A stretch of 64,000 bases of DNA, from NCBI GenBank assembly GCA_026416665.1, contig JAOAET010000014.1:557-64556 (forward strand). The letters run 5' to 3'. The notes under the pieces were generated by a model. The model searched no databases. It saw only the letters and a list, made by a program, of their open reading frames with translations, and was not told the DNA's origin. The translations under genes were made by a program, and so were the position numbers. The DNA is from Candidatus Omnitrophota bacterium. GTDB taxonomy: Bacteria; Omnitrophota; Gorgyraeia; Gygaellales; Profunditerraquicolaceae. Every line of letters starts with the position of its first letter. Within the stretch, counting starts at the first letter, position 1. This document shows positions 5 to 30,052 of the stretch, in pieces.

Positions 5-1696
5 TTATCCTTCAACATCAAGAGTAACTCGCATTACCTCCTCTGGGGTTGTTAATCCCCCTAAAAGTTTCTGCAATGCTGCTTGCCGCAAGGTTATTAG
101 ACCATCTTTTATGGCCAACTCTCTAATTACATCTGCTGACTCTTTTTTTAAAACCGCCTCTTGAATAGTAGGAGTAACTTTTAATAATTCGTAGATACCT
201 GTTCTCCCCTTATACCCTGTTTGATTACAAACCTTGCAACCTCTTCCTTTCATAAAAGTAACAGGCTTATTAATATAACTATCAAGACCCAAGCTTTTTA
301 ATAATTCTGGTTTAGGCTCATAAGATTCTTTACATTTATCACATACCTTTCGTAATAATCGCTGAGCCAAAACGCCCAAAATTGAGGAAGAAATAAGGAA
401 TGGCTCTACTCCCATATTCATTAACCGTGTAAACGCAGACGGTGAATCATTGGTATGGAGTGTAGAAAAAACCATATGACCAGTCAAAGCTGCTTGTACA
501 GCAATCTCAGCTGTCTCTAAATCGCGTATTTCTCCTACCATAATAATATCCGGATCTTGTCGTAAAAACGACCTTAAAGCTGTAGCAAAAGTAAGCCCGG
601 CAACAGGATTTACTTGCACCTGACGCATTCCAGGGAATTGATATTCTACAGGGTCTTCAACAGTCATGATATTGACATCCTCTTTATTAAGTAACTGTAA
701 AGCAGAGTACAGTGTGGTGGTTTTTCCACTTCCAGTAGGACCAGTTACCAGAAGAATACCATAGGGTGAAGAAATTAATTCTTTAAAAGTAGCTAAAGTC
801 TGCGGAGGAAATCCTAGCGACTCCAGCCCCAGAACAAGTCCACTTTTATCTAGAATTCTTAAAACAATATTTTCTCCGTGCACAGTAGGACAGGTAGAGA
901 CACGAAAGTCTATATCTTTAGAACCAATCTTCATCATGATTCTTCCATCTTGTGGCAGACGTTTTTCCGCAATATCTAACCCCGCCATAATTTTAAAGCG
1001 TGAAGTTATGGCGCTAGCTAAATCTTTAGGAAGCGCGGGTTGTCTATGAAGCATTCCATCTATACGATAACGCACATTAAGGACATTTTCTTCAGGTTCA
1101 ATATGGATATCCGATGCCTTGTTTTGTACAGCTTGAATAATCAAATAATTTACAATTTTTATTATTGGCGCCTCTTCTCCTAATTTATCCGCCTCAACTA
1201 ACTTATTTTTATCAATAGAAGAAACTATCTCTTGTAAACTGCCTGTAGGGCCATAATACTGATCCTGCGCCTTGCGTATTTCAATCTCATCACAAGACAC
1301 CGGTTCAACATTCAGCTTTGTTAACCTTTGAATTTCGTCTATTACATAAACATTTGTAGGGTCAACCATAGCTACCGTAAGAGTGCTCTCTACTATAAAT
1401 ACAGGCATTATTTTATATTTGCGTGCAAAAAATTCGGGTATTAACCGGATTACTTCTGGTTCAATAATATAACTTGAGAGATTAAAAGCGGTAATACCCT
1501 TTTGCATATTAAGACATTTTTCGACAGCCTCTCGACTTGCCCAACCACGGCGCACAATAATCTCCCCAAGTTTTCCCCCTGACATCTTCTGTTCCATTAA
1601 GGCCTCATTAAGTTGTGAGGGGGTAATTAGACCTTTTTCAATAAGAAGCTCTCCTATCTTCTTTGGAATTTCTCCCATTTTTCCCTCATTTATCAA
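5..1696 (-). CDS. GspE/PilB/MshE-family type IV filament assembly ATPase (ATPase 1)
   Basis: Walker A GPTGSGKTT, Asp/His boxes and tetracysteine CDKC...CKVC. N-terminal T2SSE_N domain carries two 24-residue MshEN-like motifs (KIGELLIEKGLITPSQLNEALMEQ and KLGEIIVRRGWASREAVEKCLNMQ) separated by 5 residues. Confidence 0.9.
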   Translation of the reverse strand: MINEGKMGEIPKKIGELLIEKGLITPSQLNEALMEQKMSGGKLGEIIVRRGWASREAVEKCLNMQKGITAFNLSSYIIEPEVIRLIPEFFARKYKIMPVFIVESTLTVAMVDPTNVYVIDEIQRLTKLNVEPVSCDEIEIRKAQDQYYGPTGSLQEIVSSIDKNKLVEADKLGEEAPIIKIVNYLIIQAVQNKASDIHIEPEENVLNVRYRIDGMLHRQPALPKDLASAITSRFKIMAGLDIAEKRLPQDGRIMMKIGSKDIDFRVSTCPTVHGENIVLRILDKSGLVLGLESLGFPPQTLATFKELISSPYGILLVTGPTGSGKTTTLYSALQLLNKEDVNIMTVEDPVEYQFPGMRQVQVNPVAGLTFATALRSFLRQDPDIIMVGEIRDLETAEIAVQAALTGHMVFSTLHTNDSPSAFTRLMNMGVEPFLISSSILGVLAQRLLRKVCDKCKESYEPKPELLKSLGLDSYINKPVTFMKGRGCKVCNQTGYKGRTGIYELLKVTPTIQEAVLKKESADVIRELAIKDGLITLRQAALQKLLGGLTTPEEVMRVTLDVEG

Positions 1697-2839
1697 TTAC
1701 CACAAATTTTCTTTTAACCATTGATCTATCTTTTCCATTCTATCTAACCAAGAACTAACCTCTTCATTTTTTGAACGCCTTTGCCTAGAAGTTTGTATTT
1801 CATTACTGGCTGGTTTCTTTAGCGTTTTTTTATAAACAATTTCCTGTTGTAATTTTCTTTCACTCTTCTTTTGGACTGGTTGTATTATTTCCTTTTCCTG
1901 TTGTTTATTTAGCTTTTGACTTAGTTTATCTTCTTCTCTTTTTTCTTGACCGGTTTGTAGCAATTTAATATCTTTACTTTTTTGTTGTTGAGCAAGACGT
2001 TGTATTTCTTTCTCATATAACTGTTCACGCCTCTGACGAAATAATTCTTCTTCTCTAATCTGCTTTTGCCTTTGTTGCTCTTCTTTCTCCTTTTGTCGTC
2101 TTAATCGTTCTTCCTCTTGTAAACGTTTTTTTCTTTCTTGTTGTTGAATACGGAATTCTGCTTGGGAAGATGTATATTTGACTTTTTCTTCTTCAGGTTT
2201 ACTCACTAATTGTTCTTTTTTTTGCTGTTGAGGTATATTATTTTCAACTTCCTTTATCTTGACTTTTTCTTCTTGCTTATTCTTTGGTTCATATTCTTTT
2301 TTTTGTTCCGTCTTTGTAAGCTGCTTGTATCTCTCATCCTGCTCTAATTTCCTCTTTGCCAACATCTCTTGCCTTTGCGCCTGTCTTTGAGCTTTTAACT
2401 GCTCAATTCTGCCCTCTTTTTCCTGTCTTCTCATAACTAGCTGTTTAAGTTTTTCTTTACGCTGTTGCCTCTGTTGTGCCAATAACTGCTTGCGCCTATT
2501 ATTCTCTTCACGAACCTGCTGTTGCTTCTCTTGCTTTTTTTTATCCACTGCATCTTCTATCTTTAGTTTCTGTTTGGATTTTTCCTGTTTATTTAAAAGC
2601 GCATTCCTACTTTTTCTTTCCTCTATTTGAACTTGTAACTTTTTCCGTTGATTAACTAAATTTTTATAATATTGTTGTAAATCCGAAACCTCCCTTTCCT
2701 GTTGTTGTATTGTTTTTTCTAAGTTCCTGATACGTTCACTCAATTCGTCATATTTAGGTACCTCTGCCAGAGACAAGGAATCTATAAAAAAACAATTCAC
2801 TAGACTAAAAATTCCCATTACTAATAAACGCCTTTTCAT
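1697..2839 (-). CDS. secreted ER/K-rich coiled-coil / single-alpha-helix protein (380 aa)
   Basis: N-terminal signal peptide MKRRLLVMGIFSLVNCFFIDSLSLA. The remaining ~350 residues are almost exclusively K/E/R/Q/L with heptad character. Adjacent to the ATPase with no intergenic gap. Confidence 0.6.
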   Translation of the reverse strand: MKRRLLVMGIFSLVNCFFIDSLSLAEVPKYDELSERIRNLEKTIQQQEREVSDLQQYYKNLVNQRKKLQVQIEERKSRNALLNKQEKSKQKLKIEDAVDKKKQEKQQQVREENNRRKQLLAQQRQQRKEKLKQLVMRRQEKEGRIEQLKAQRQAQRQEMLAKRKLEQDERYKQLTKTEQKKEYEPKNKQEEKVKIKEVENNIPQQQKKEQLVSKPEEEKVKYTSSQAEFRIQQQERKKRLQEEERLRRQKEKEEQQRQKQIREEELFRQRREQLYEKEIQRLAQQQKSKDIKLLQTGQEKREEDKLSQKLNKQQEKEIIQPVQKKSERKLQQEIVYKKTLKKPASNEIQTSRQRRSKNEEVSSWLDRMEKIDQWLKENLW

Positions 2840-2857
2840 TCTTATTCCCTTCTTAAC

Positions 2858-4102
2858 TTAATAAGAAACTGTCCCTTGCAAAACACCTTGATGTTGTTGC
2901 CTTAAGGTTTTTAAAAAACTTTCTTCTGTCTCTAAATTCCTCTCTAAATCTTTCATCTGAATTGCCAGACTTTCTTGTTCTTTAAGTAAATTTTCTGTCT
3001 CGTTCAATATTTTCTCAAACCGTTTATCACACCTTTCTGTAAGCTCTATTTCCATTAGGCGATTACGTTTTTCATTCCAGTCTTTTAACCGCTTCTCTTC
3101 TTTGAGCTGGTTGTATTCTTGCTGTTTTTTTGGTTTTTCGGCCAATTCATATCTTTTTCGTACCTCTCGTATCTGTCTTATCCATGGGCGTTGTTTCAAT
3201 ATTTCTTCTCTTTTCCTCTGACGAATAATTTCCTTTAACTTCTGTTGATGTTCTCTTTTCTTGTAAGTAGTTTCTTCTCTTATTCTTTCAAATTTATTTT
3301 GTCCTTCTTCTTGTTTATTGGCTAACAACTCTTCTCTAAGTTTATCTTCCTCTGTTCTAGTTTGCTTTATTTCCTTGTTCTTACTTTTACTTAAAATATG
3401 TCTTAGCATCTGCCTTTCTCTAATTTTAAGCTTTTTATCAATACGTTTTAACTCTCTTTTTTTTCTTGCTTCTTGCTGCAGTTTATTTTTTCTTTCTTGA
3501 TGTTCCTTTGTCAACAGATTTTTAAGTTTATCTTTTTCTTGTTTTCTTTGGGCCTTCTTTTCCTCTTCAAGTTTTCTCTCAATTTCTCTAGTTATTAAAT
3601 TTTCTTGACGTTGAATTTCCCTTAGAGCTATCTTCTGTGCTTTTTTATCTTTTAACTCTTGGTTATGTTTTAATCTTTCTTCCTTACGTTCTATTGCCAT
3701 TATTTCTTTTCGTTTTCTGACCTCTTCCTTCTTAACACGCTCCTGTTTCCTTCTCTCCTCCTGCTGCTGCCTTAACCTCTCCCTCTCCTGCTTCTTCTTC
3801 TCTATCTCTTGCCTGTATTTGACCTTCTTTTTTTGAAGTTCTTTTTCTTCCTTATCTTTTTTTTCTAATTGCCGCTGCCTTATTTTATTTGTTATTTCCC
3901 TTTCTTTTTCCAGCTGTTCTTTCTTTATTTCTTTGTACCTTGTGCGTAGAAAATTTATTTTTTCTTCTTGTAGTTTTATCTGCTCTTCTAACTGTCTTAC
4001 TGACCTAAGCAATTCTTCTTCGGAATCTGCCCAAGAAGAAAATGAAAGGGTAAAAAAGCCAAGTATAGTGAATATAAATATTAACCATCCTCTATAATTC
4101 AT
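2858..4102 (-). CDS. secreted ER/K-rich coiled-coil / single-alpha-helix protein (414 aa)
   Basis: Signal peptide MNYRGWLIFIFTILGFFTLSFSSWA followed by ~390 residues of an ER/K (KEKE-type) charged helix. Paralogous in composition to the neighbouring genes. Confidence 0.6.
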   Translation of the reverse strand: MNYRGWLIFIFTILGFFTLSFSSWADSEEELLRSVRQLEEQIKLQEEKINFLRTRYKEIKKEQLEKEREITNKIRQRQLEKKDKEEKELQKKKVKYRQEIEKKKQERERLRQQQEERRKQERVKKEEVRKRKEIMAIERKEERLKHNQELKDKKAQKIALREIQRQENLITREIERKLEEEKKAQRKQEKDKLKNLLTKEHQERKNKLQQEARKKRELKRIDKKLKIRERQMLRHILSKSKNKEIKQTRTEEDKLREELLANKQEEGQNKFERIREETTYKKREHQQKLKEIIRQRKREEILKQRPWIRQIREVRKRYELAEKPKKQQEYNQLKEEKRLKDWNEKRNRLMEIELTERCDKRFEKILNETENLLKEQESLAIQMKDLERNLETEESFLKTLRQQHQGVLQGTVSY

Positions 4103-4116
4103 AGGATAATTATTAT

Positions 4117-4803
4117 TTAACCCTTCTTCTCTGTTTCTAATTTTTCCAATATATTATTTAGTTTCTTTATCTTCGCCTCTTCTTTGTTTAACAAGGTTTC
4201 TAGCAAACGTATTTTTCGTTCCAAAGATGTTTTCTTTCTGATAAGAAATTTTAAGGTCTTAGTAGGATTTTCAGTTTGTTCCGCTCTGTTACTAAACAAA
4301 GCCTCTTCGATTACTTTTTGACGAACCGCTACCAAATCTTCAGTTTTCTGGTGGGGTATTGTAGATGGTTTAGATTGTTTACTTCTAATAACTTTTTTTC
4401 TATTCTCTTCGTGTTTCTTCTTTAAAACTTTTGTTGACGTAGGTAGGAATAATTGTTCTTTTTTCACCTCTTTTTCTTTTGTAACTAATTGCTGTCTTGA
4501 TTTAGCAGAAATATCTTTTTCTTTACTGTACTTTTCTTTTTTCTTCTCTTGTTTTGTAAGACATTCGATCTCTTTCTTTTGCTGATTGATAGACAATTCA
4601 AGCTGCTTTCTTTGATAAACGAGATTTTCTAATTTTTTTTGCAGTTGGTTCACATATCTCTGCTGTTGAACAATCTCTTCGGTCAGTTGTTTAATCTTAA
4701 ACTTCAATATTCTGGGATTTTCAGAATTAAAAGCCATGCAATTTACCAAAGCAACCTCAAAAAATAAGCCTATAAATATCAAAATTGTAATATAATTTTT
4801 CAT
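4117..4803 (-). CDS. secreted ER/K-rich coiled-coil protein (228 aa)
   Basis: Signal peptide MKNYITILIFIGLFFEVALVNCMA, then a charged K/E/Q-rich helical sequence. Third member of the tandem triplet. Confidence 0.55.
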   Translation of the reverse strand: MKNYITILIFIGLFFEVALVNCMAFNSENPRILKFKIKQLTEEIVQQQRYVNQLQKKLENLVYQRKQLELSINQQKKEIECLTKQEKKKEKYSKEKDISAKSRQQLVTKEKEVKKEQLFLPTSTKVLKKKHEENRKKVIRSKQSKPSTIPHQKTEDLVAVRQKVIEEALFSNRAEQTENPTKTLKFLIRKKTSLERKIRLLETLLNKEEAKIKKLNNILEKLETEKKG

Positions 4804-4822: not shown

Positions 4823-6106
4823 TTAATTAAAACTCTTTTCACCCTTTAGAGTATTTTTCTCTTTTTCTAGCTGTTTGATACGTTCTTCTTCCATATTTAC
4901 AGCTTCTTGTAATTTTTTTGTCTGGTTAATTAATAATTCCTGTTTCTTTAATAGCTCGTTCCACTTAACAGCAAGTTTATTGGCTTTATCCATTTCCTTT
5001 TTCTCTCGTTCAAGTATCCTTATTTCTTCTTCTTCTCTCTCTCTCACAAAATTCCTGCTAATGCCATAGCGTTCTTGCCTAGCTATCTGAGCTATTTTCT
5101 CTTCATTTATAATAGAAGGCGAAACGAAAATAAGTAGTTCAGTTCTTTCTTTAGTATTTAGTTTTGCCTTAAATAAATTACCTAATAAAGGAATATCTCC
5201 CAAAAGAGGAATTTTGGTCTCTGACTTTACATTACGACTGCGCATCAACCCCCCAAGTATCACAGTCTGGTTACTTTTAAGAACCAACTTAGTAGAAGCC
5301 ATTCTTCGGTCAATAATGGGCACAGTATAAGGTATAGATACACCTCCACTGGCAACAGTTAAAGTGTAATCATCTATCTTTTCACTAATTTCAGGATTAA
5401 GCGTCATTAATATATCCCCATTTTCGCTGATAGTTGGCGTTACCTGCAGCATAATACCTACATCTTCAAAATGAATTGTCCAGGTAACTTGAACCGACCC
5501 AGATTCTGAAGTAGTCAGTGTAGGTTCAGCCCAAGGTAACTGCTGAACAATCCTAATTTGTGCTGGACGGTTATTTACTGTTGCTACACGAGGTGCAGAA
5601 AGTACCTCTGTATTATAACTATTGGCTAAAGCATTGATAACAACATTAATATTTTCATCAAAAATAGAAAAGGTAAAAGGTGTTTCCTCTAATGTCCCTC
5701 CTGGCTCGATAGTGTTCTTGTAAGGTATAAGCTGAGTAAGGGATTCAGGAGGAATACCCACTGTACCTGCAGTAGTGCTACCTACTTTAAAATTGCCCAC
5801 TTCTGCTCCCTCAGAATGAAACAACCGCCAATTTACTCCTAATGATTGCTGATCAGTTAACCGCACCTCTACTACCCTTGCCTCAATAAGAACCTGCGCT
5901 GGAGACACATCAATAGCTTCCAGGTACTCACTAATCCTTTTGATATTTTCAGGATAGTCCATTACCACGATAGAATTGGGTTCTTCGCCGTAAAAAACTT
6001 TTCCTTCACTAGAAAGTAAAGCGCGAATATTATTACTTACTTGTTGTGCATAGATATTCACTAATAAAATTGCTGTAATTATAACAATCAAGATGATTTT
6101 TTTCAT
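4823..6106 (-). CDS. short secretin (GspD/PilQ family): one Secretin_N domain plus secretin core, with C-terminal ER/K coiled-coil tail
   Basis: Own signal peptide. N1-like VLIEARVVEV. Secretin core VLSAPRVATVNNRPAQIRIV...IPLLGDIPLLGNLFKAKLNTKERTELLIFVSPSII. Last ~90 aa are an ER/K-rich helix (EREEEEIRILEREKKEMDKANK...). Confidence 0.85.
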   Translation of the reverse strand: MKKIILIVIITAILLVNIYAQQVSNNIRALLSSEGKVFYGEEPNSIVVMDYPENIKRISEYLEAIDVSPAQVLIEARVVEVRLTDQQSLGVNWRLFHSEGAEVGNFKVGSTTAGTVGIPPESLTQLIPYKNTIEPGGTLEETPFTFSIFDENINVVINALANSYNTEVLSAPRVATVNNRPAQIRIVQQLPWAEPTLTTSESGSVQVTWTIHFEDVGIMLQVTPTISENGDILMTLNPEISEKIDDYTLTVASGGVSIPYTVPIIDRRMASTKLVLKSNQTVILGGLMRSRNVKSETKIPLLGDIPLLGNLFKAKLNTKERTELLIFVSPSIINEEKIAQIARQERYGISRNFVREREEEEIRILEREKKEMDKANKLAVKWNELLKKQELLINQTKKLQEAVNMEEERIKQLEKEKNTLKGEKSFN

Positions 6107-6137
6107 TCTTCTACCTCTTTTTAATATTTAATCTTGC

Positions 6138-6992
6138 CTATTTGCTTGAACCACTACTAGCTGTCCCAGTAGTTGTACTAGTAGTAGTCTGCACCTGTGT
6201 TCCCGTTGGAGTAATTACTTCTGTGGTTGTAGTTATCTTTTCGGTAGCGCCTACTACCTCATCCGCCTTAAGATATTTTAGTTTAAATACCCGTGTTTCC
6301 ATTTTATGATCTACTGTCTCTAAATATTGGGCAACGCGTTTTATATTTTCAGGATAATCAATTACCGTCAAAGCATTCTTCTGTGGTACTAACAAAATCT
6401 TTCCTTTTTTGGAGAGTAATGCAAATAAACCAGAAACCTGCTGATTATCTGATGAATCGCTACCTTCTCCTTTATTAGTAGCCGTAGTAGAGACCTCAAA
6501 AAGTTTCTTGGCTTCTATATGCTTTAACACAAAAGTTTGTGTTAATAGGTTTGGCCTTACTCTTAAAAGTGTTCCTTTTTTCTCAAGGATAAGATTACTA
6601 TGTTCGGCAATGGCCTCAAGTGCCTCTTCAAGCGAGATATCCGTAAAACTTGCCGTAATTTTTCCATCTACATCTTCATCTATAAGAATATTCAAATTAT
6701 AATCATGGGCAATAACACGAAACAAATCTCCTAAATTAACATTCCTTAATTCAATAGAATAGCGAGGTGCTTCTGCTTCTAACCGTTTTATTTCCAATAC
6801 CGGTGCATTAGTTAACTCTCTGTTAATCGGTTCTTGGACTTTTTGACCTTGTTGTTGGTTTGGTTGCTGTTGAGTAGGTTGAGATTTATCCTGACCAGCT
6901 GGCTCTTGTGCTTCTATATTTCCGTAATAAAACATACAAAACAAGCATAAAAGATAAATTTTTAATCCCTTATGTCTCTGAAAAACTAACAT
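6138..6992 (-). CDS. separately encoded secretin N0–N1 domain protein with Q-rich N-terminal and T/S-rich C-terminal low-complexity segments
   Basis: Signal peptide. STN/N0-like LGDLFRVIAHDYNLNILIDEDVDGKITASFTDISLEEALEAIAEH. N1-like ALTVIDYPENIKRVAQYLETVD, paralogous to VVMDYPENIKRISEYLEAID of the downstream secretin. Ends TTTTEVITPTGTQVQTTTSTTTGTASSGSSK. Confidence 0.6.
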   Translation of the reverse strand: MLVFQRHKGLKIYLLCLFCMFYYGNIEAQEPAGQDKSQPTQQQPNQQQGQKVQEPINRELTNAPVLEIKRLEAEAPRYSIELRNVNLGDLFRVIAHDYNLNILIDEDVDGKITASFTDISLEEALEAIAEHSNLILEKKGTLLRVRPNLLTQTFVLKHIEAKKLFEVSTTATNKGEGSDSSDNQQVSGLFALLSKKGKILLVPQKNALTVIDYPENIKRVAQYLETVDHKMETRVFKLKYLKADEVVGATEKITTTTEVITPTGTQVQTTTSTTTGTASSGSSK

Positions 6993-7004: not shown

Positions 7005-9017
7005 TTACCGCCGTGTAGATAAAAATACACGTATAACCTCATCAATTAGTCGGATATCCGCTATATCTTGTATCCCAAGAATATCTAGGCTATCATTTGT
7101 TATTTTTAGCGCATAACAACGTTTGTTTGGGAAGCTTAAAAAATCCGCTTGTTGTTTCTTCTCTTCTTTTAATGCCAAACCAAATTTTTGGGAAAGCATT
7201 TTCTTAAATGCCTCAGCATAAGAAACAGCATCGTTGAGTGTTTTCCATTTAATCTGTAACAGAAATAAGCGATTACCGTTATTATGTCTGTATATTGAAA
7301 TTTTATCGTTTTGCCAAGCACCACAGATTTCTTCTGCTTCCTCTTTGGGCAGAATCTGGCGTAAAGTCATTAAAAGGTAAAACTCACCTATACTATCTTC
7401 ATATTCTTTATGCCAGCCTTCCGGAAAAGTTAATACGTTGACCTCTTCCTTCTGTTGGGCAGATTTATCTGCTAAAGACTGTTCAGTAACCGAGCGATAT
7501 GGATGTAACAGTTGCTGTGTGGTAGAAGGCGGTTTGGCAAACAATTTATCCAAATCATTCCATTGTTTATCACTAAGGTAATATTGAATATAATTAGCAC
7601 CATATCCATATAAACTGTATTGCAACTTATCTATTGTCTCTTTATTGTCTTTTAATATCTTATTCTCGATTAAATCAAAGATATCCCCCAAAGATTTGAA
7701 ACTCTTTCCATCCTTACTTAATATATACTCTAGTTGAATAGCTTTTGCCTCGCCTTCTAAAAGCATATTTAAGGCAGTGATATTATCTTGCGAAAGCTTA
7801 TCTTTATTTATTCCAAGTATCTCTGGTGAATAGTAAGTATGTTGATAAGCATGTACGAGTTCATGAACTAAAACCGTTTCTGCTAACTCAGGACTAAGCC
7901 ACTGCCCTAAGAAAATCTTTTTCCTCTGTTTACTATACAAACCAGCAACAGAAGCTATTAAAGAATCAACCAACATCTCACGGTAATTTATTGCCTGCGG
8001 AACTAATCCCAACCATTTCAGAATCTCTTCTTGAATAGCAAAATATTCTGTATTATATTCTTTTTCAAGGTCCTCTAAAACATAAGAACGTAAACTTACT
8101 CTATCTATAAATTCAATCCCAAAATCCTCAAATGGCTTCCATCCACGTAACTGAGTAATCCATTGAATTAAGGTAGGAATCTTCTGTTTTATTTTTTCTC
8201 TCTCACCTAATACCTCTTGTTGAATATCTGAAGGCACATCAAATTTCTCTGTTGGATTTTGTTTCTGATAATGATTAAGTTGTAAAAAATACATCCCATT
8301 GATTTTTCCTTCAATTCGCGCCAAAACTGTAAAAAAATCTGTAGTATCTATCCAGATAGTCTTAGTAAGTTGTCCGCTTATACCTTTTTCTTCTAAGATC
8401 TTTGGGTTAATTGTGTAACGTAAAACATAACACTTCTTTCCAAAACGTTCTTCTATTGCCAGTATTTCTTTAGTAACAGGTTCTGCCTCTTCTTGTTGGA
8501 CATAAAAAAGAGATTGTAAAAACTGATACGTCAATATTTCATTTTTATCTTTATCAGATATTTGCAGCTTTTCTCTTTGCCATTTTCTTTTTTGCGCATC
8601 CCAAACAAAAGAAAGACCGTCGTAATCATACCCTTGCGCCCAGTCAGCAGTAGAGATGCCATAAGGCACAGTTAAAGAAACACTGATTTTGGTATCTGTT
8701 TTTATATTTTCGAGTCTATCTATCAGATCCTTACTATTTACTCTTATATGAAACAACTCATGTCCCAACCAAACATCAGAAATAACTATAAACTTAGGAG
8801 TTTGCAAAAACGCACTGGCTGTTTTATATAAAAGATAGTCTGAATCTATTTGGGTATTTAATGGTAACCATGAAGTATTTTTACCTCTCTGCTGTTGTTG
8901 GGCTATCTCACTTAAATATTGTCTCAGTTGCACCGCCTCCCACCCTAACAAAAAAGGTAAGCATAAGAGTAAGTAGAATTTTCTTTTAATTTTTTCTTTT
9001 ATGGGCTTAACCATCAA
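7005..9017 (-). CDS. secreted HExxH zinc-metallopeptidase-like protein (MA-clan, gluzincin-like), 670 aa
   Basis: N-terminal hydrophobic signal or anchor (FYLLLCLPFLLGW). HELVHAYQH motif followed ~30 aa later by LLEGEAKAI, a candidate third Glu ligand. No recognisable named peptidase family. Confidence 0.45.
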   Translation of the reverse strand: MMVKPIKEKIKRKFYLLLCLPFLLGWEAVQLRQYLSEIAQQQQRGKNTSWLPLNTQIDSDYLLYKTASAFLQTPKFIVISDVWLGHELFHIRVNSKDLIDRLENIKTDTKISVSLTVPYGISTADWAQGYDYDGLSFVWDAQKRKWQREKLQISDKDKNEILTYQFLQSLFYVQQEEAEPVTKEILAIEERFGKKCYVLRYTINPKILEEKGISGQLTKTIWIDTTDFFTVLARIEGKINGMYFLQLNHYQKQNPTEKFDVPSDIQQEVLGEREKIKQKIPTLIQWITQLRGWKPFEDFGIEFIDRVSLRSYVLEDLEKEYNTEYFAIQEEILKWLGLVPQAINYREMLVDSLIASVAGLYSKQRKKIFLGQWLSPELAETVLVHELVHAYQHTYYSPEILGINKDKLSQDNITALNMLLEGEAKAIQLEYILSKDGKSFKSLGDIFDLIENKILKDNKETIDKLQYSLYGYGANYIQYYLSDKQWNDLDKLFAKPPSTTQQLLHPYRSVTEQSLADKSAQQKEEVNVLTFPEGWHKEYEDSIGEFYLLMTLRQILPKEEAEEICGAWQNDKISIYRHNNGNRLFLLQIKWKTLNDAVSYAEAFKKMLSQKFGLALKEEKKQQADFLSFPNKRCYALKITNDSLDILGIQDIADIRLIDEVIRVFLSTRR

Positions 9018-9436
9018 TTCTTATTATTTTCCTCTTGTGACTGAGACTTCAAAATACTGCTTACTTTTATAACGTATTCTCCAACACTATCTTTTAACCT
9101 AATTTCTTCTGGTTTGATATTGGTAATCTCTTTATTATCTACATAATCGCCTATTTTCAATATCCTCCCATTGACAATAACACAGCTTTTTCCAGCATCA
9201 GGCGCATATATAATGGCAGTAATATTAAATCCATCTAAAGGAATAGCCGTTCCTTGTTCCTGAAATAATTTTTCTTCGTCACTGGTAAGAAAAGGATTCT
9301 CTTTACCTTTTAAGATAATAGGCCCTTTCTCCACAGTAACCTCAGTTTGAGTAAAAGAAAAAACCATAAGTAAATTAGAAAAAGTTAAAGTTGTGGTTAC
9401 ACCGATAATCTTTATAAGAAGACTTAATCTAGCCAA
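9014..9436 (-). CDS. PilP/GspC-like small periplasmic protein
   Basis: N-terminal membrane anchor. C-terminal beta-rich segment with VIVNGRILKIGDYV, resembling PilP/GspC secretin-interacting domains. 4-nt overlap with the downstream gene. Confidence 0.35.
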   Translation of the reverse strand: MARLSLLIKIIGVTTTLTFSNLLMVFSFTQTEVTVEKGPIILKGKENPFLTSDEEKLFQEQGTAIPLDGFNITAIIYAPDAGKSCVIVNGRILKIGDYVDNKEITNIKPEEIRLKDSVGEYVIKVSSILKSQSQEENNKN

Positions 9437-9620
9437 GATGCCCCCTCATTATTTCTTTTAGTTTTTTTAAGTCATCCTCAGTGTATTGACGCCAGCGGTT
9501 AATAAGATTTCTTCGTGCTTTAGGAAAAATTCCTTTTTTCTCGTAGCGGAACAGGGTTTGTTTAGAGATTCCAAGTCTCTCAGCTACTTCCTGTGCAGTA
9601 AACATTTTGCTCTCACTCAT
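9429..9620 (-). CDS. small helix-turn-helix DNA-binding protein (MerR/excisionase HTH_17-like)
   Basis: FTAQEVAERLGISKQTLFRYEKKGIFP is a canonical HTH. 63 aa. SD-like AAGGTAGG upstream of the ATG. Confidence 0.6.
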   Translation of the reverse strand: MSESKMFTAQEVAERLGISKQTLFRYEKKGIFPKARRNLINRWRQYTEDDLKKLKEIMRGHLG

Positions 9621-9721: not shown

Positions 9722-9747
9722 AATACTTGATAGTATTTGATAGTATT
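9722..9747. repeat. operator-like repeat: inverted repeat AATACT-tgat-AGTATT followed by a tandem direct repeat of TGATAGTATT (x2)
   Basis: Read directly from the sequence in the 185-nt intergenic region upstream of the HTH gene. Confidence 0.5.
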
Positions 9748-9805
9748 GTAAACTACCAGATATAAATTGTCAAGATTTAATTTTTTATAATCCCTTTATT
9801 TTTAT

Positions 9806-10639
9806 TTAGTTAGAAAAAAGACGCACTAATAATTTTCTATCCTCTGCCGTCAGATTATTAATTCGAATCCCTAGCAAATAATTTTTATAGTTTACCATCG
9901 TGCTGCGCAGGATTTCTCCTTTTGCCTCTATTACACAAGTTTCAAACCCACATTTTTCGAACCCATAGAGTGTAAAGGAAACATATATATGAGGTGGTAA
10001 AAATAAAGGCATCTCTGCTCCTAAAGCAGAACAATCCGCCGAAACATTTAAAACTTTTCCTTCAATAACTCTGGGAGCAAACAATTTAACTTCTTCATCA
10101 ACAAGAGTAAGCTGTATTTTACCAGAAACAGGTAATCTATCTGCCTCTCGCCATTGACTAACCCCACTTAAAGGATTATGCTTAATAAGATATCTAGTGA
10201 TTTCAAAATTCTGTTCATCAAGTTTGTAATAGAGATCTATAGCAGCTAAAATTTCGTGAGTAGTAGCAACCACCGGCTCAATCGTTAATCCTGTAATTTT
10301 GGAAACATCGTCAATAAGAGCTGCGTTTAAAGGATTAGCACATGCTAAAAACAAAGTATTGCCTACCTTATATAAGGGAAAAACCTTATTTTGTAAACAA
10401 TAATTTTCTTCTAAAAGATGAAGCACATGTGGCGAAATTGCATAATCAGAAATACGTACAAATGCAAAACCACCCATTTGTGCAAAGAAACAAGCCAGCT
10501 GTTCTTCTGATAAAAACCCTAATTTTACCAGACATATCCAAATAGATTTTTTACTGGTGGTGGCTTCAAGGCGAGCAACATCAAGCTGCCATTGTTCAAT
10601 CCATTTGTTCTCTAATAACTCTTTTTCGAGATCTAACAT
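9806..10639 (-). CDS. T2SSE_N (GspE N-terminal-like) domain fused to a PilZ c-di-GMP-binding domain
   Basis: N-terminal region is T2SSE_N-like (LVKLGFLSEEQLACFFAQ...VFPLYKVGNTLFLACANPLN). C-terminal region has canonical PilZ motifs RxxxR (READR, residues 164–168) and DxSxxG (DCSALG, 202–207). Confidence 0.6.
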   Translation of the reverse strand: MLDLEKELLENKWIEQWQLDVARLEATTSKKSIWICLVKLGFLSEEQLACFFAQMGGFAFVRISDYAISPHVLHLLEENYCLQNKVFPLYKVGNTLFLACANPLNAALIDDVSKITGLTIEPVVATTHEILAAIDLYYKLDEQNFEITRYLIKHNPLSGVSQWREADRLPVSGKIQLTLVDEEVKLFAPRVIEGKVLNVSADCSALGAEMPLFLPPHIYVSFTLYGFEKCGFETCVIEAKGEILRSTMVNYKNYLLGIRINNLTAEDRKLLVRLFSN

Positions 10640-10648
10640 AAATTAAAG

Positions 10649-11875
10649 TTACTTCTTAAATAACTGTATCATATTCCATAATGGTAAAAAAATAGCCAGT
10701 GCCATACCCATTACTACCACCCCCAAAACAGCTGTCATCAAGGGTTCAATTAATGCCGTGAGATTTTTTACCGTAGTTCGCACTTCCAGCCCGAAGTATT
10801 CACATAAAGAATCTAACATCAAAGGTAATTGTCCACTTTTTTCTCCTACCGACACCATATAACCAACTAACCTTGGAAAAAACTTACTGTTAAGGATACC
10901 TCCAGATATACCCTTTCCATCTGCAACTGCTCGTTTAATAATATTAACCTCATTCTCTAACACAACATTACCAATCGTCATTCCTACAATCTCTAACGTC
11001 CTTAGAATAGGTAAACCAGATTGGTATAAAACATTTAACATACTGGCAAACCGTAACATAGTTATTTTAGTATAAAGTTTACCAAAGATAGGGATTTTAA
11101 ACTTTAAGCTATCCCAAAAATTACGCCCAAAAGCAGTTTTAATAAAAACGCGCCATAATAATGAAAATACACCAATACCTGCTATAACCGCATACCAATA
11201 ATGGCGTAAAATGTGTCCAAATAAAATCATTATTTGTGTGGGTAAAGGCAGTTGGGTGTTGGCCTGGGCATAAATTTTGGCAAACTGGGGCATAACAAAT
11301 ACTGTCAATACCACCACCGCCACAATCATAGCAATTACTACCATAATAGGATATCGTAAAGCCGCTGATATATTGGAACGTGTCTCTAAATCTTCTTCTA
11401 ACATCTCTGCCAAACGCATCAGAACCTTATCTAAAATTCCTGCACTCTCCCCCGCTATCACGGTATTTACATAAAGTTCAGAGAATATACCTGGATGCTT
11501 TGCCAATGCCTGAGATAAACTTGTTCCTGCCTCTACATCGCGTAAAATTTCTTGTAGCGCTTTTTTTAATGCAAGATCTTCTGCCTGTTCAGCAAGTACT
11601 CCCAATCCTTCTAAAATAGGCACCGCTGCTTTAATGATAGTGGCAAATTGCCGAGTGAATATCACCAATGTGCGCATATCCACTGTGCCGTGGGTTTTCT
11701 TACCTGCTCCAGAAACACCTTTTTTAATTTGTGTTTTTGCCTTAAAAGTGATACTCACAGGTAAATATCCTTTTTTTGCTAATTCAGTAGTTAAAGCCAT
11801 TTCACTGGTAGCTTCCATTTCCCCTTTCACGTATTTTCCCTGACTATCTACTGCTTTATATATATACCAAGTCAT
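10649..11875 (-). CDS. PilC/GspF inner-membrane platform protein
   Basis: 408 aa. Typical N-terminus (YKAVDSQGKYVKGEMEA), two T2SSF repeats and TM helices. Confidence 0.85.
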   Translation of the reverse strand: MTWYIYKAVDSQGKYVKGEMEATSEMALTTELAKKGYLPVSITFKAKTQIKKGVSGAGKKTHGTVDMRTLVIFTRQFATIIKAAVPILEGLGVLAEQAEDLALKKALQEILRDVEAGTSLSQALAKHPGIFSELYVNTVIAGESAGILDKVLMRLAEMLEEDLETRSNISAALRYPIMVVIAMIVAVVVLTVFVMPQFAKIYAQANTQLPLPTQIMILFGHILRHYWYAVIAGIGVFSLLWRVFIKTAFGRNFWDSLKFKIPIFGKLYTKITMLRFASMLNVLYQSGLPILRTLEIVGMTIGNVVLENEVNIIKRAVADGKGISGGILNSKFFPRLVGYMVSVGEKSGQLPLMLDSLCEYFGLEVRTTVKNLTALIEPLMTAVLGVVVMGMALAIFLPLWNMIQLFKK

Positions 11876-11898: not shown

Positions 11899-13716
11899 CT
11901 ACTTTCTATTACTTAACCAATTGGCAATGCGCTTTTCATAAGCAGCTATCTGAGATTCATCCACTTTTACTGGTTGCTGAGATAAAGTACTTGCAGGCGG
12001 AGAAGGAATTGCTGGACCAACAAGAATTTCCTCAGAAGTTGATCGTAAATCAAGATGTTCTTCGCAAACCCTAGCTACTTCTTCCAAAGTGGTTATACCT
12101 TGCAATACCTTTGATAAACCATCTTCACTTAGGAGTTTCATCCCTTTTGCTTGCGATTTTTTACGTAACTGCACAGTAGATGCACCCGCAATAATCATTT
12201 CTCTAATCTCATCATCCACCACCATTAGTTCAAATAATCCGGTTCGTCCGCGATAACCTGTCCCTTTACAATAATCACAACCCTTTCCCCTGTATAAACG
12301 AATATTCTTCTTATGGCTTAATCCCCATTTTTCCAAAACTGCCTTCGTTGGTTCATATGACTCCTTACAATGTTCACAGATAACCCTTACCAACCTTTGT
12401 GCCATAACTCCAATAAGAGAAGCTGAGATTAAAAAGGACTCCACTCCCATATTAACTAAACGCGTTACTGCTGAGGGTGCATCATTGGTGTGCAAAGTAG
12501 AAAAGACTAGATGTCCAGTTAAGGCAGCCTGAATAGCAATAACTGCTGTCTCTAAATCTCTTATCTCTCCGACCATAATTACATCAGGATCTTGACGCAG
12601 AATTGCCCTTAAACCATTTGCGAAGGTAATTCCTGCCTTAACATTTACCTGTATTTGTCGAATCAGTCCGAGACGGTATTCTACAGGGTCTTCAATTGTA
12701 ATGATATTACGGTCAATAGTGTTGATGCGCATAAGGGCTGAATATAAAGTGGTAGTCTTTCCACTACCTGTTGGACCAGTGGAGAGAATAATTCCGTACG
12801 GTCGCGAGATAAGCTCTTCATACCGCTTAAGCATATCTTGGGTAGAAAACCCTAATTTTTCCAGCCCAATCATTACTGAGGCAGTATCCAAAAGCCGAAT
12901 CACCACATTCTCTCCATAAATAGTGGGAATGGTTGAAACACGAAAATCAATAATTTTATCATCTATCTTTGACTGAAAATGGCCATCCTGGGGAATTCTA
13001 CTTTCCGCTATATCCATACCTGCCAACACCTTAATGCGTGAGATAATTGCTCCTTCCCAATCTTTAGGGGGAGGCGGTATTTCATGAAGGATACCGTCAA
13101 TTCTAAAACGAATTCTTAGAATTTCTTGTTCTGGTTCAATATGTATATCCGATGCCCTGTCACGAACCGCTTGTGAGATAATTAAATCTACTAATTTTAT
13201 AATTGAAGCTCCTTCTTGAGCAGATTTGGCAGTGGCAGAGGAAACTGCTACTTGAGCATAGTCAGTCATAAGCTTTTCGTCTTGGGGCCTGCGTTTATAC
13301 ACTTTAATACGCGCCTCTTCTATATCTTCGGGACTGGCCAAATAGGGCTCTACATGAAGACCAGTTTGCATCTTTATTTGGTCAATAGAAAAAATATCCC
13401 CTGGATCCACCATTGCTACGTGAAGCACTCCTTGCTCCAAACGAAATGGTACAGACTGGGTCTCAGTAGCTAAGGATTCAGGCATACGTTCTATCATTTC
13501 TTCGGGTGCTTTAACAACATCTAATTTAACGAAGTTAAATCCAAGTTTTCTGGCAATGGCCTCATAGAGTTTGTGGCGATTGACCAACCCCATCTCTACC
13601 ACTACCTTTACTAGTGGACGTCTCAGTTTCTTAATCTCCTCTTGTGCCTTATCTAAATTTTCCTGACTGATTAATTCCTCCGAGATAAGTAGTTGGGCTA
13701 ACTCCATGTCGTTCAT
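11899..13716 (-). CDS. GspE/PilB-family type IV filament assembly ATPase (ATPase 2)
   Basis: Walker A GPTGSGKTTT and tetracysteine CEHC...CDYC. N-terminal T2SSE_N domain without the MshEN motif. Confidence 0.9.
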   Translation of the reverse strand: MNDMELAQLLISEELISQENLDKAQEEIKKLRRPLVKVVVEMGLVNRHKLYEAIARKLGFNFVKLDVVKAPEEMIERMPESLATETQSVPFRLEQGVLHVAMVDPGDIFSIDQIKMQTGLHVEPYLASPEDIEEARIKVYKRRPQDEKLMTDYAQVAVSSATAKSAQEGASIIKLVDLIISQAVRDRASDIHIEPEQEILRIRFRIDGILHEIPPPPKDWEGAIISRIKVLAGMDIAESRIPQDGHFQSKIDDKIIDFRVSTIPTIYGENVVIRLLDTASVMIGLEKLGFSTQDMLKRYEELISRPYGIILSTGPTGSGKTTTLYSALMRINTIDRNIITIEDPVEYRLGLIRQIQVNVKAGITFANGLRAILRQDPDVIMVGEIRDLETAVIAIQAALTGHLVFSTLHTNDAPSAVTRLVNMGVESFLISASLIGVMAQRLVRVICEHCKESYEPTKAVLEKWGLSHKKNIRLYRGKGCDYCKGTGYRGRTGLFELMVVDDEIREMIIAGASTVQLRKKSQAKGMKLLSEDGLSKVLQGITTLEEVARVCEEHLDLRSTSEEILVGPAIPSPPASTLSQQPVKVDESQIAAYEKRIANWLSNRK

Positions 13717-14360: not shown

Positions 14361-15473
14361 CTATCTCTTCTTTTTAGAATCAGGAATTAGCTCTACTTCT
14401 ACCTTAGGTTCACCTTTTTTTGTAGGTAAATGGCCTTGTTGATTTAGCTGGTTATCAGGTGTCTGCAGAACCTCACCAATACGCCCTAAAAGCGTAAGGT
14501 ATTTATCTTGCAAATCTAACATTTGTTGATTTATCTTGTCCAAAGCCATCTGTATGTTGTTTTTTTCTAATTCTACTGCTATATATTTTTCACGTAAGAT
14601 AGCAATTTGTCGGTCTTTGTCCTTGGATTCAGAACGCGCATCAAAAAGTTCGTTTTCCAAGTGCATAATCTTTTCTTGTAAAGAAAATATCTTCTTTGAG
14701 CGGTCTTCCAACTCCTCTCTACTGTTGGCCAATGCCTCCTTGGCTTCTTCATATTGTTTAGCCAATAGTTGTCTTTGGTTTTCTGATTGTTGCAGTTCAT
14801 CTTCCAGTTTCCTAATTTTCTCTTCCAAAGGTTTTGGGTCAAAACGCTTTGTCTGCTCAACTGTGACTTCCTGCAAACTCGCTACAGAAAGAGGGGTATT
14901 CTCTAAAATCTGCAAAAGATAGTTATTAACCGAGGAAAGCTCTTTAGAGACTGTCTCAAGTTGCAGACGTAGTAATTCTTCCTTACCCCTAGAAATTTGC
15001 AGACTTTCTAAAGCTGTTTCCACATGAGCAAGTTTATCTTTAATTGGCTCTATTAAGAGAAACTTCTCTTTTAGTTGAACTATCTGCTTTCTAAGAAATC
15101 TGTTATGTTTTACAAGCACAAGTAACTGCTTCCTAAGGACAGAAAACTGAATTATCTGTTGTTGTAGCTTTTGAAGCTGTAGGGTCAAAAGATGGTTCTG
15201 CCTGAGGGCATCAGTAAGCGTCTGATTAGTTGTTGTAGAGCTACGTTCTACTTCTTCTAACTGTTTTTTTATCTCCTGCTCCTTTTTAACAAACTTATCA
15301 CTTAATTCTTTATAATAGTTGAGCTCTCCTTGTAACTTATCAAGTATTAACTGTTGCTGTTTGTTTTGCATAATACTTTGAGTAAACTCTTTCTGAAGCC
15401 CAGTATAGTAAAACAAAAGCGCACAACTACAACTTATTACAATAACCACAAAAAATGTCCTTTCAGCGAACAT
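14361..15473 (-). CDS. membrane-anchored long coiled-coil protein
   Basis: N-terminal TM helix followed by ~340 aa of heptad-rich Q/E/K/L sequence. Sits between the TPR gene and the secretin. Confidence 0.45.
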   Translation of the reverse strand: MFAERTFFVVIVISCSCALLFYYTGLQKEFTQSIMQNKQQQLILDKLQGELNYYKELSDKFVKKEQEIKKQLEEVERSSTTTNQTLTDALRQNHLLTLQLQKLQQQIIQFSVLRKQLLVLVKHNRFLRKQIVQLKEKFLLIEPIKDKLAHVETALESLQISRGKEELLRLQLETVSKELSSVNNYLLQILENTPLSVASLQEVTVEQTKRFDPKPLEEKIRKLEDELQQSENQRQLLAKQYEEAKEALANSREELEDRSKKIFSLQEKIMHLENELFDARSESKDKDRQIAILREKYIAVELEKNNIQMALDKINQQMLDLQDKYLTLLGRIGEVLQTPDNQLNQQGHLPTKKGEPKVEVELIPDSKKKR

Positions 15474-16872
15474 CTATTATTTTCCTTTTTTCTAACTTAA
15501 ATGGTCTCTGTTGAACAAGAAAATTATTTTCTTTGTCTATCACAGATTTATCGCCATCTTTCAGGATACGTGCAGTAACAAAAATTAATAGGTCTGTCTG
15601 TTCTTCAGGCTCTTCTTTACTTCCTTTTTGTTTATAGGTAAAGATTTTACCTACAAGAGGTAAAGAACTCAAACCCGGTATCCTCGTCTGTGAAGCATAT
15701 TCCTTGGTTTTGACTAATCCTCCTAAAACAATGGTCTGGCCATCTTTAATTTGAACCTCTGTCTCAGCAGTTCGCGTCTGAATTATCGGACGTTGATTGA
15801 CCCCTTCTCCGATATAATCAAATATATTGGAGACTTCTGGTTTTAACTTTATCTTAATATAGCCATCAGGACTAATCTGAGGCGTAACCTCTAAGTTAAT
15901 ACCTATATTCTGTTCCTCCCAACCAGTAATTTCCCAAGCACCCGTTGTCTCATTAAGAGTGTAAGTAGCAATAGGCACAACTTTACCCACATTAATCTTT
16001 GCTTTTTGGTTATTTACTGCTATAACTCTTGGGGCAGCAATTAATTTTGAATCCGTGCGATTTTTTAAGAAATTTAAAATCGCTGTGAATGAAGAAAAGT
16101 CTAGTGTCCCTAATACAAAATCACTGGTAGTTGCATAAGGAAAACTATAAGGACTATCGGCAGGGAAACTAGAACCACTTGAGACAGGAAATAAATTTTT
16201 TGACAGTTCACCTTTTCCTTTTGGGTCAAAAGGAAAGGTTGTCTTGCGAATAGCTCCCTGTAAAGAAACAGTGGTGCTCCAGTTAATTCCTAGATTTTCG
16301 CTGGTTAAAAGAGAAGTCTCAATTAATCGTGCTTCAATAAGTACCTGCCGATTGGTTTCATCTAAAGCGGGTAACATCGCCTCTATTTTGTTAAGGACTG
16401 AAACCGTATCAGTGACCACCAATGAATTAGAACGGCTATCTGCCTCTATAGAACCACTGGGACTGAGAACTTTGGAGAGAGTATCTTTTAGTTGCATAGC
16501 ACTTGCGTAGTTAAGTTTAAAAAGTTTGGTTTGTTTACCCTCTCGTTCTGCCTCTTCAATAGTAGTAACTTTATACACATTATCCTTCTTTGTATAGGCA
16601 AAACCATTAACCGTAATGATAGAATCAAGGGCTTGATCAATAGTCACATTGGAAAGCTGAACAGTCACCAAACCTCTTACATTCTCAGAGAATACGATAT
16701 TTAGGTTATATTGTTTGGCTAATTGTCTTAAAATATCTTTGATATCCACCTCGCGAAACTCTAATATTTCTATAAGCGGAGTAGATACTTCTTTTTGTTG
16801 AGCGAAGCTAAATTTGATAATTACCCCTGCAACAAAGCTAACTACTAACAAACCTAAAATCGTCTTCTTCAT
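15463..16872 (-). CDS. secretin (PilQ/GspD), N0+N1+secretin core
   Basis: STN/N0 VDIKDILRQLAKQYNLNIVF...TIDQALDSI, N1 NRQVLIEARLIE, secretin core AAPRVIAVNNQKAKINVG...IPGLSSLPLVGKIFTYK...DLLIFVTARIL. Confidence 0.9.
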   Translation of the reverse strand: MKKTILGLLVVSFVAGVIIKFSFAQQKEVSTPLIEILEFREVDIKDILRQLAKQYNLNIVFSENVRGLVTVQLSNVTIDQALDSIITVNGFAYTKKDNVYKVTTIEEAEREGKQTKLFKLNYASAMQLKDTLSKVLSPSGSIEADSRSNSLVVTDTVSVLNKIEAMLPALDETNRQVLIEARLIETSLLTSENLGINWSTTVSLQGAIRKTTFPFDPKGKGELSKNLFPVSSGSSFPADSPYSFPYATTSDFVLGTLDFSSFTAILNFLKNRTDSKLIAAPRVIAVNNQKAKINVGKVVPIATYTLNETTGAWEITGWEEQNIGINLEVTPQISPDGYIKIKLKPEVSNIFDYIGEGVNQRPIIQTRTAETEVQIKDGQTIVLGGLVKTKEYASQTRIPGLSSLPLVGKIFTYKQKGSKEEPEEQTDLLIFVTARILKDGDKSVIDKENNFLVQQRPFKLEKRKIIDVR

Positions 16873-27921: not shown

Positions 27922-27925
27922 ATTT

Positions 27926-29668: not shown

Positions 29669-29670
29669 TG

Positions 29671-30021
29671 TTATTCTACTTGAAAAGTAAAAATATAATC
29701 ATTTACTAACATCTTGGAAACAACGTGTTTTTCCAGTATCTTCAAAGCAACTTCAGGATTCACTTTTCCATAAATAACTGTGGGAACACCCTCTACCTGA
29801 ACCTCCACCAGGGGCTCAGCATAACACATTCCTAAACAACCACATTTTTCCACAGAAACAGGCAACCCACGTTTTGATACTTCTTCTTTTAATACTGAAT
29901 AAACTTGCTGTGCACCAGCAGCAATACCACAGGAAGACATACCCACACGAATTAAATTACCTTGCTGCTGCTTTTTCTGTTTATGTAACTGCTCTAATTT
30001 TTGCGGAGTCAACTTTTCCAT
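29671..30021 (-). CDS. small thioredoxin-like [2Fe-2S] ferredoxin subunit (HndB-like)
   Basis: 116 aa with [10 protein letters not shown]...[13 protein letters not shown]. Confidence 0.6.
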
Positions 30022-30052
30022 TTAACTTATCAAAAACTTAATTTAAAATAAT

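Follow-up and report, generated by a model that had tools for sequence, protein, structure and literature searches.

A 64,000-nt window from an uncultured Candidatus Omnitrophota bacterium (GenBank assembly GCA_026416665.1, contig JAOAET010000014.1, positions 557 to 64,556 of the forward strand) encodes two paralogous type IV pilus assembly ATPases, here called ATPase 1 and ATPase 2. [quoted passage not shown] Sequence comparison and a structural model together indicate that ATPase 1 is likely to be a direct c-di-GMP receptor and that ATPase 2 is not. We infer c-di-GMP binding, its affinity and every later step from features that are observed directly: the motif and its register, the score against a curated model, the fold, conservation across the clade, intact ATPase motifs and the gene context. 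ATPase 1 has the following parts.

5..1678, minus strand: ATPase 1, PilB/GspE-family type IV pilus assembly ATPase of 557 amino acids (aa) (Pfam T2SSE 4.6e-142, plus MshEN)
1589..1660, minus strand: MshEN motif I, residues 7-30, KIGELLIEKGLITPSQLNEALMEQ
1574..1588, minus strand: five-residue spacer KMSGG, residues 31-35, of the same length as in MshE (KNTGR)
1502..1573, minus strand: MshEN motif II, residues 36-59, KLGEIIVRRGWASREAVEKCLNMQ
1238..1501, minus strand: MshEN_C alpha/beta subdomain, residues 60-147 (Pfam PF05157 on residues 62-147; AlphaFold2 predicted local distance difference test score (pLDDT) 92-95 over residues 71-140)
29..1177, minus strand: ATPase core (N2 and C-terminal domain), spanned by Pfam T2SSE at residues 168-550

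The block KIGELLIEKGLITPSQLNEALMEQ-KMSGG-KLGEIIVRRGWASREAVEKCLNMQ occupies residues 7-59 (window positions 1502..1660, minus strand). A preliminary description of this DNA had reported two 24-residue repeats with a five-residue spacer and Lys at the first position of each, and both are present exactly as quoted (K7 and K36). Its coordinates, 1499-1657, were one codon off (that stretch reads IGELL...NMQK), and its residue numbers, 14-66, combined the same slip with a count from a TTG codon at 1696. This TTG lies upstream in the same open reading frame, but the ATG at 1678 is the likely start because GAGGGA lies 5 nt upstream of it, the NCBI protein has 557 aa and orthologues begin there.

The motif was scored against the curated NCBIfam model NF053729 (‘c-di-GMP_motif’, MshE-related; 53 positions, cut-off 38 bits), which aligns residues 7-59 of ATPase 1 with model positions 1-53 of 53 at 65.4 bits (E = 2.9e-18). 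This score rules out chance resemblance. The published strict consensus is RLGxx(L/V/I)(L/V/I)xxG(L/V/I)(L/V/I)xxxxLxxxLxxQ (PMC5013675). Over its 11 key positions, with (R/K/L) accepted at position 1 as in PMC11731258, motif I matches at 10, the exception being I at position 2, and motif II at 8, with exceptions at W11, A12 and V17. Both motifs match the relaxed database-search pattern of Wang et al. at 11 of 11 positions. The consensus match claimed earlier was slightly generous for motif II at L11/L12 and L17. Gly is found at position 3 of both motifs (G9 and G38) and Gln at position 24 of both (Q30 and Q59). In MshE the backbone amide of the position-3 Gly bonds guanine, and substitution of G11 or G40 abolishes binding (PMC5013675).

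In the prototype, the two hydrophobic triads of the site consist of Leu throughout; each combines the position-2 residue of one motif with those at positions 17 and 21 in its partner. Triad 1 of ATPase 1 (L37, L23 and L27) is canonical, and triad 2 (I8, V52 and L56) is hydrophobic with a single Leu. W11 has a precedent in motif I of PilF GSPII-B, A12 and V17 have one in a motif of PilF GSPII-C, and a reconstruction of GSPII-A accepted Ile at position 17 and at position 21 (PMC12002112). Judged by such alignments, each motif deviation of ATPase 1 has a precedent in a c-di-GMP-binding domain.

Like Vibrio cholerae MshE (5HTL, PMC5013675), ATPase 1 is a T2SSE-family pilus ATPase whose extreme N-terminus carries two 24-residue motifs separated by five residues, with G3, G10, L21 and Q24 in both motifs and with four-helix and alpha/beta subdomains. 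Identity between the two is 10/24 in motif I and 6/24 in motif II. ATPase 1 departs from MshE by starting both motifs with Lys instead of Arg, by having I8 and V52 where MshE has two Leu of the guanine-2 triad, and by W-A at positions 11-12 of motif II. The hosts also differ, ATPase 1 belonging to an uncultured Omnitrophota bacterium whose pilus system is not of the MSHA type.

The concern that Lys in place of Arg might spoil the site is settled by published binding data. Thermus thermophilus PilF GSPII-B (8PDK), whose first positions are Lys167 and Leu196, has an affinity of 6 nM for c-di-GMP. Arg in place of Lys167 weakens binding substantially, with a dissociation constant (KD) of ~92 nM for the K167R-E170D double mutant and a similar value for K167R alone; the K167L variant binds at 2 nM (PMC11731258). 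Lys is also the first residue in CtPilB (53 nM) and DgPilB2 (13.5 nM), and the consensus was widened to (R/K/L)LG..., greater hydrophobicity of the first residue being proposed as a predictor of very high affinity (PMC11731258). Lys at both positions of ATPase 1 fits this extended consensus. By analogy, it predicts an affinity at least equal to that of MshE (0.5 uM), possibly in the tens of nM.

ATPase 1 resembles PilF GSPII-B in having Lys at motif I position 1, with no Arg for ligand stacking, and in the sequence ‘KGW.SREA’ after the first helix; motif I of GSPII-B shares 13/24 residues with motif II of ATPase 1 and 14/24 with its motif I. The two differ in that PilF has three tandem GSPII domains and ATPase 1 a single domain. 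Motif II of GSPII-B starts with Leu and is one residue shorter, and its affinity is measured where that of ATPase 1 is predicted.

An AlphaFold2 model of residues 1-150 (alignment of 45 sequences, mean pLDDT 85.2) contains helices at residues 8-14, 20-33, 37-44 and 49-59 followed by an alpha/beta unit, so that the arrangement of a four-helix MshEN_N plus an alpha/beta MshEN_C subdomain is present. Helices 1 and 3 begin at motif position 2, and the backbone amides of their first turns are therefore free in the model; the corresponding amides are the ligand-binding groups in MshE and GSPII-B. The top Foldseek match in the PDB is c-di-GMP-bound MshE (5HTL; E = 1.5e-10, template modelling score 0.65-0.70). 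Several c-di-GMP-bound structures of PilF GSPII-B follow, and a PDB sequence search agrees.

ATPase 2 provides a paralogous comparison within the same gene array.

11899..13716, minus strand: ATPase 2, paralogous PilB/GspE-family ATPase of 605 aa, 48% identical overall to ATPase 1
13546..13704, minus strand: degenerate MshEN block of ATPase 2, residues 5-57, ELAQLLISEELISQENLDKAQEEI-KKLRR-PLVKVVVEMGLVNRHKLYEAIARK, with the 24+5+24 register retained

Among Omnitrophota, 45 of 45 ATPase 1 orthologues (N-domain identity 53-77%) match NF053729 at E <= 1e-10. Residues were counted in 95 register-aligned orthologues; G3 and G10 are invariant in this set owing to the way its members were chosen. L21 is kept in 91 of the 95 in both motifs, Q24 is kept in 92 (motif I) and 93 (motif II), and position 1 is K or R in 93 and 92, respectively. 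The majority residue there is K (75/95 in motif I, 81/95 in motif II), and R accounts for most of the rest.

ATPase 2 scores 32.9 bits against NF053729, under the cut-off. It does lack the motif, as the preliminary description held, and what it has instead is a degenerate copy in the same register, in which position 1 reads E/P, A/V stands where G3 would be and I/K where Q24 would be. Not one of 113 ATPase 2 orthologues combines Gly at position 3 of motif I with Gly at that position of motif II; motif I position 1 is acidic in 104/113, and motif II starts with ‘RPLE’ in 109/113 (‘PLE’ lying within the motif). ATPase 2 keeps the hydrophobic core positions (6, 7, 11, 12 and 17) and has lost ligand-contact positions 1, 3 and 24, a loss that holds across the 113 orthologues. 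Since the core positions are kept in both paralogues and the ligand positions in ATPase 1 alone, the motif of ATPase 1 appears to be maintained for ligand binding and not for folding. We consider this contrast, drawn from alignments, to be the strongest computational argument for a ligand-binding constraint on ATPase 1.

By the same comparison ATPase 2 itself is very probably ligand-blind. It can be compared with the non-binding MshEN-like domains of Xanthomonas XpsE and PilF GSPII-A. The hydrophobic fold positions and the register of ATPase 2 are intact, G3 and Q24 are absent from both of its motifs, and R/K is absent from motif I position 1. Changes of this kind are reported to abolish binding in XpsE (G11V, R38G, G40L and Q61V; PMC5013675) and in GSPII-A (S39, A41, H33 and R62; PMC12002112). 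What sets ATPase 2 apart is the strong conservation of its degenerate version, which suggests that the ligand-blind block has retained a different function and has not merely decayed.

The binding mode of MshE and GSPII-B can be transferred to ATPase 1 with fair confidence by analogy. One c-di-GMP per monomer would be bound across the four-helix subdomain. Backbone amides at positions 2-4 (I8-G9-E10 and L37-G38-E39) would hydrogen-bond the phosphates and the Hoogsteen edges of the guanines, Gln30 and Gln59 would contact ribose and phosphate, and each guanine would be sandwiched between a Lys side chain (K7 or K36) and a hydrophobic triad (L37/L23/L27 or I8/V52/L56). Rising c-di-GMP would then favour pilus extension or surface attachment by the ATPase 1 machine, and the paralogous ATPase 2 would have no c-di-GMP sensing of its own. 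In V. cholerae, mutation of the motif in MshE leads to loss of pilus production and of biofilm formation (PMC5013675), and PilF GSPII-B that cannot bind c-di-GMP gives reduced twitching and adhesion (PMC11731258).

The catalytic motifs expected of such a motor are intact in ATPase 1: Walker A (GPTGSGKT) at residue 313, the Asp box/Walker B (DPDIIMVGEIRD) at 375, the His box at 399 and a tetracysteine motif formed by CxxC at 446 and 481. Its best PDB sequence matches are PilF (6f8l) and PilB (5zfr/5tsg). A protein of 557 aa from a Candidatus Omnitrophica metagenome-assembled genome is 100% identical, and the nearest genomes are Omnitrophota throughout, the closest GTDB representative being 84% identical.

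Several points weigh against ATPase 1 being a ligand-competent, c-di-GMP-responsive extension motor. The protein narrowly misses the TIGR02538 PilB equivalog cut-off (657.3 bits, cut-off 675.65). It also misses that of the GspE model (618.6 bits, cut-off 630.25), and it is therefore filed in the PilB/GspE family with PilB as best match and not as an equivalog. Both non-Leu replacements, I8 and V52, sit in one triad, that of guanine 2, and the equivalent MshE mutation L10A causes a 36-fold loss of affinity (PMC5013675). Fully restoring the consensus in PilF GSPII-A still gave no binding; GSPII-A bound c-di-GMP only after removal of an N-cap-stabilised extension of helix 1 together with inter-subdomain contacts (PMC12002112), so a consensus motif alone is insufficient.

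The GSPII-A result bears on one rival explanation, in which the motif is conserved but the full protein binds no c-di-GMP and the N-domain is a docking module for the platform or for partner proteins. MshEN-like N-domains can indeed bind proteins, and the Xanthomonas PilB(N)-PilZ complex (7lkm) is among the structural matches of the model. We nevertheless consider this explanation quite unlikely: the ATPase 1 clade hardly varies at the ligand contacts that are dispensable for the fold (K/R at position 1, G3 and Q24), and the ATPase 2 clade has lost them. In addition, only six residues, Pro5 included, precede motif I of ATPase 1. This short tail and the modelled start of helix 1 at motif position 2 speak against a blocking helix extension like that of GSPII-A.

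The consequences of binding for the motor are less secure. In vitro, c-di-GMP shifts the ATPase activity of MshE by <10% (PMC5013675) and leaves ATP hydrolysis by Clostridium perfringens PilB2 unaltered (PMC11656802). Because the ligand barely alters either activity, ‘gating’ of the motor is not a demonstrated mechanism even in model systems. The preliminary description had called ATPase 1 a c-di-GMP-gated ATPase; the tests of sequence and fold favour the receptor half of that phrase, and the word ‘gated’ is not justified. It is possible, if somewhat unlikely, that the domain binds c-di-GMP and does not gate the motor, but instead stabilises the protein, steers recruitment to the platform or lets PilB signal another output such as exopolysaccharide (EPS). 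Myxococcus xanthus motif mutants mainly have lower PilB protein levels, and c-di-GMP raises the thermal stability of the domain (PMC11656802). PilB has also been described as an EPS signalling protein, with c-di-GMP and ADP as mutual allosteric effectors (PMC5544727, PMC6957770). Against these data, pilus-dependent phenotypes of V. cholerae and T. thermophilus are indeed weakened when binding is lost, so some control of assembly is usual, and nothing in the window points to an EPS output.

A further point against ATPase 1 as a c-di-GMP-responsive motor is that GGDEF, EAL and HD-GYP genes are absent from the 64-kb window, as judged by Pfam searches of all open reading frames of >= 100 aa and of the region of a 63-aa helix-turn-helix (HTH) protein. 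In favour of c-di-GMP use by the organism, one orthologous locus (L003) has a receiver-GGDEF gene 8.5 kb away from its ATPase 1 orthologue. Within the window, a STAS-PilZ protein (53612..54334, minus strand) has canonical RxxxR (RRRFKR) and NxSxxG (NLSGIG) motifs and a PilZ score of 54 bits; its sequence provides independent evidence that the organism uses c-di-GMP. A ComFB-CheR fusion (22893..24035, plus strand) lies beside a second CheR gene (24050..25126) and is transcribed divergently from the upstream pilus module's pilin genes. A role as c-di-NMP receptor domain has recently been described for ComFB, and the ComFB-CheR architecture has already been noted for Omnitrophota (PMC12448109).

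The PilZ domains of the window point to c-di-GMP and thus bear on the identity of the ligand. MshEN binds cyclic GMP-AMP (cGAMP) weakly (KD 3.3e-4 M; PMC5013675), and another cyclic dinucleotide such as 3'3'-cGAMP could in principle be the physiological ligand of ATPase 1. We regard this as very improbable, since the affinity for cGAMP is ~600-fold below that for c-di-GMP and both half-sites of ATPase 1 keep the guanine-specific Gly backbone geometry.

A further MshEN-containing protein is encoded between the two ATPase genes.

9806..10639, minus strand: MshEN and PilZ fusion protein, 277 aa (Pfam MshEN 6.7e-20; PilZ 21.2 bits, below the 22.5 cut-off)
10649..11875, minus strand: PilC/GspF platform protein of the ATPase 2 module (Pfam T2SSF 6.2e-56; TIGR02120 2.8e-103)

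The fusion gene begins 9 nt past the PilC gene of ATPase 2. Both of its MshEN motifs are degenerate, and NF053729 gives no match to the protein. In the PilZ part, RxxxR is present as READR and is conserved in the family, and the second motif (D/NxSxxG) reads NVSADC, with Cys where close relatives have Gly (DLSADG, NISADG). The sequence DCSALG had been considered as a canonical DxSxxG motif; alignment with relatives rules this out and places NVSADC in the true register. Because of this motif and of a PilZ score just under threshold, c-di-GMP binding by the fusion protein is uncertain. An exhaustive search of 1.84 billion cluster representatives, from which the family size was taken, puts this small family at about 25-30 full-length representatives; a word-indexed search with the protein returned just 6 relatives.

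The position of the fusion gene, between ATPase 2-PilC and the module that contains the HTH protein and secretin 1, is kept in the four orthologous loci examined (L001-L004), and stand-alone PilZ and receiver genes are inserted beside it in L001, L003 and L004. Of the two motor N-domains, that of ATPase 1 (34% identity, 73.9 bits) is the closer to the MshEN part of the fusion protein, the values for ATPase 2 being 24% and 51.2 bits. A firm assignment to the ATPase 2 machine, suggested by the 9-nt spacing from PilC, was dropped in view of this similarity and of the location of the gene directly upstream of the HTH/secretin-1 module in every locus.

The fusion protein is a candidate indirect c-di-GMP adaptor. 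In the Xanthomonas citri PilB-PilZ-FimX system (7LKM, PMC8389850), a ligand-blind PilB N-domain receives c-di-GMP input through a PilZ partner. The arrangement here is similar, in that a putative PilZ-fold adaptor is encoded near a pilus ATPase with a ligand-blind N-domain. Unlike X. citri PilZ, the PilZ domain in the window is fused to its own degenerate MshEN and keeps RxxxR, and no FimX-like protein was seen in the window. By analogy, either machine may be under indirect c-di-GMP control through a PilZ partner. That c-di-GMP has no control over the second machine, as was claimed, consequently does not follow from the missing motif of ATPase 2, given a MshEN/PilZ protein encoded so close to its PilC.

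The remaining features of the two pilus modules are listed below.

15463..16872, minus strand: secretin 2, a single gene
9745..9773, minus strand: promoter-like TTGACA-17-TACAAT (11/12, consensus match only) in the 185-bp gap upstream of the HTH gene
9429..9620, minus strand: MerR-type HTH protein, 63 aa, opening the module whose last gene is ATPase 1 (MerR/HTH_17 matches in orthologues at the same place)
4823..6992, minus strand: secretin 1, split between a gene for an N0/STN/Secretin_N protein (6138..6992) and one for the secretin core (4823..6106)

From position 22800 to position 5, every gene is on the minus strand. The order begins with minor pilins, PilMN, PilO, a CdsD_C-like protein, secretin 2, a coiled-coil protein, a TPR protein, ATPase 2 and PilC. 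It continues with the degenerate-MshEN/PilZ protein, the 185-bp gap, the HTH protein, a second CdsD_C-like protein and a 670-aa HExxH protein, and ends with secretin 1, three signal-peptide proteins and ATPase 1. Three promoter-like sites were found in the region, where 2.6 are expected. The split of secretin 1 into two genes is also found in 4/4 orthologous loci.

The window edge lies 4 nt beyond the stop codon of ATPase 1, and gene context past it was taken from the orthologous loci and from GTDB representatives. In L002-L004, the genes 3' of ATPase 1 encode PilW_C pilins, minor pilins, a second PilC, PilMN and PilO. The pilus gene set of ATPase 1 is thus composed of the secretin upstream in the window and of pilins, PilC, PilMN and PilO in these loci, and because the latter lie past position 1, just half of the ATPase 1 machine is visible in the window.

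Between secretin 1 and ATPase 1, at 1697..4803 (minus strand), lie three successive proteins of 380, 414 and 228 aa, each with an N-terminal hydrophobic segment and a long region of 36-48% Glu+Lys+Arg, and without a Pfam match. This slot varies among the orthologous loci: L001 has a single protein of 1059 aa there, L003 has two proteins, and L002 and L004 have none. The 670-aa protein inside the secretin-1 module (7005..9017, minus strand) contains HExxH as HELVHAYQH and has weak matches to DUF6782, Peptidase_M91 and the Hvo_1808 surface-protein family, and its orthologues carry DUF8575; it could be cargo or a processing protease. At 26170..30526 (minus strand), an electron-bifurcating [FeFe] hydrogenase-like operon encodes a HydA-like large subunit, a Nuo51-like flavoprotein and two thioredoxin-like [2Fe-2S] proteins, which fits an anaerobic fermentative lifestyle.

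Taken further, the gene array could mean that Omnitrophota keep two type IV pilus-like machines in tandem, linked to c-di-GMP by separate routes: a direct Lys/Lys MshEN site, of predicted nanomolar affinity, on one motor, a conserved ligand-blind N-domain on the other, and a small family of adaptors in which a ligand-blind copy of the motor's N-domain is joined to PilZ. The adaptor could then mimic or compete with the motor N-domain at the platform in a c-di-GMP-dependent manner. We offer this scheme as speculative and on balance unlikely; if true, it would allow two thresholds, or opposite responses, from one messenger.

MshEN motifs have been recorded in >10,000 proteins, on PilB, MshE and GspE ATPases (PMC5013675), and Lys at the first position has already been explained structurally. 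ATPase 1 is an uncharacterised member of this well-described class, an ordinary example of a known regulatory device that adds little to the c-di-GMP field. The MshEN/PilZ fusion is the more unusual element of the locus and may deserve a study of its own. The value of the finding is local, in that it supplies a concrete, testable c-di-GMP target in the uncultured phylum Omnitrophota. The intact and degenerate paralogues, placed in one gene array, form a natural control pair that could separate the residues required for the MshEN fold from those that contact the ligand.

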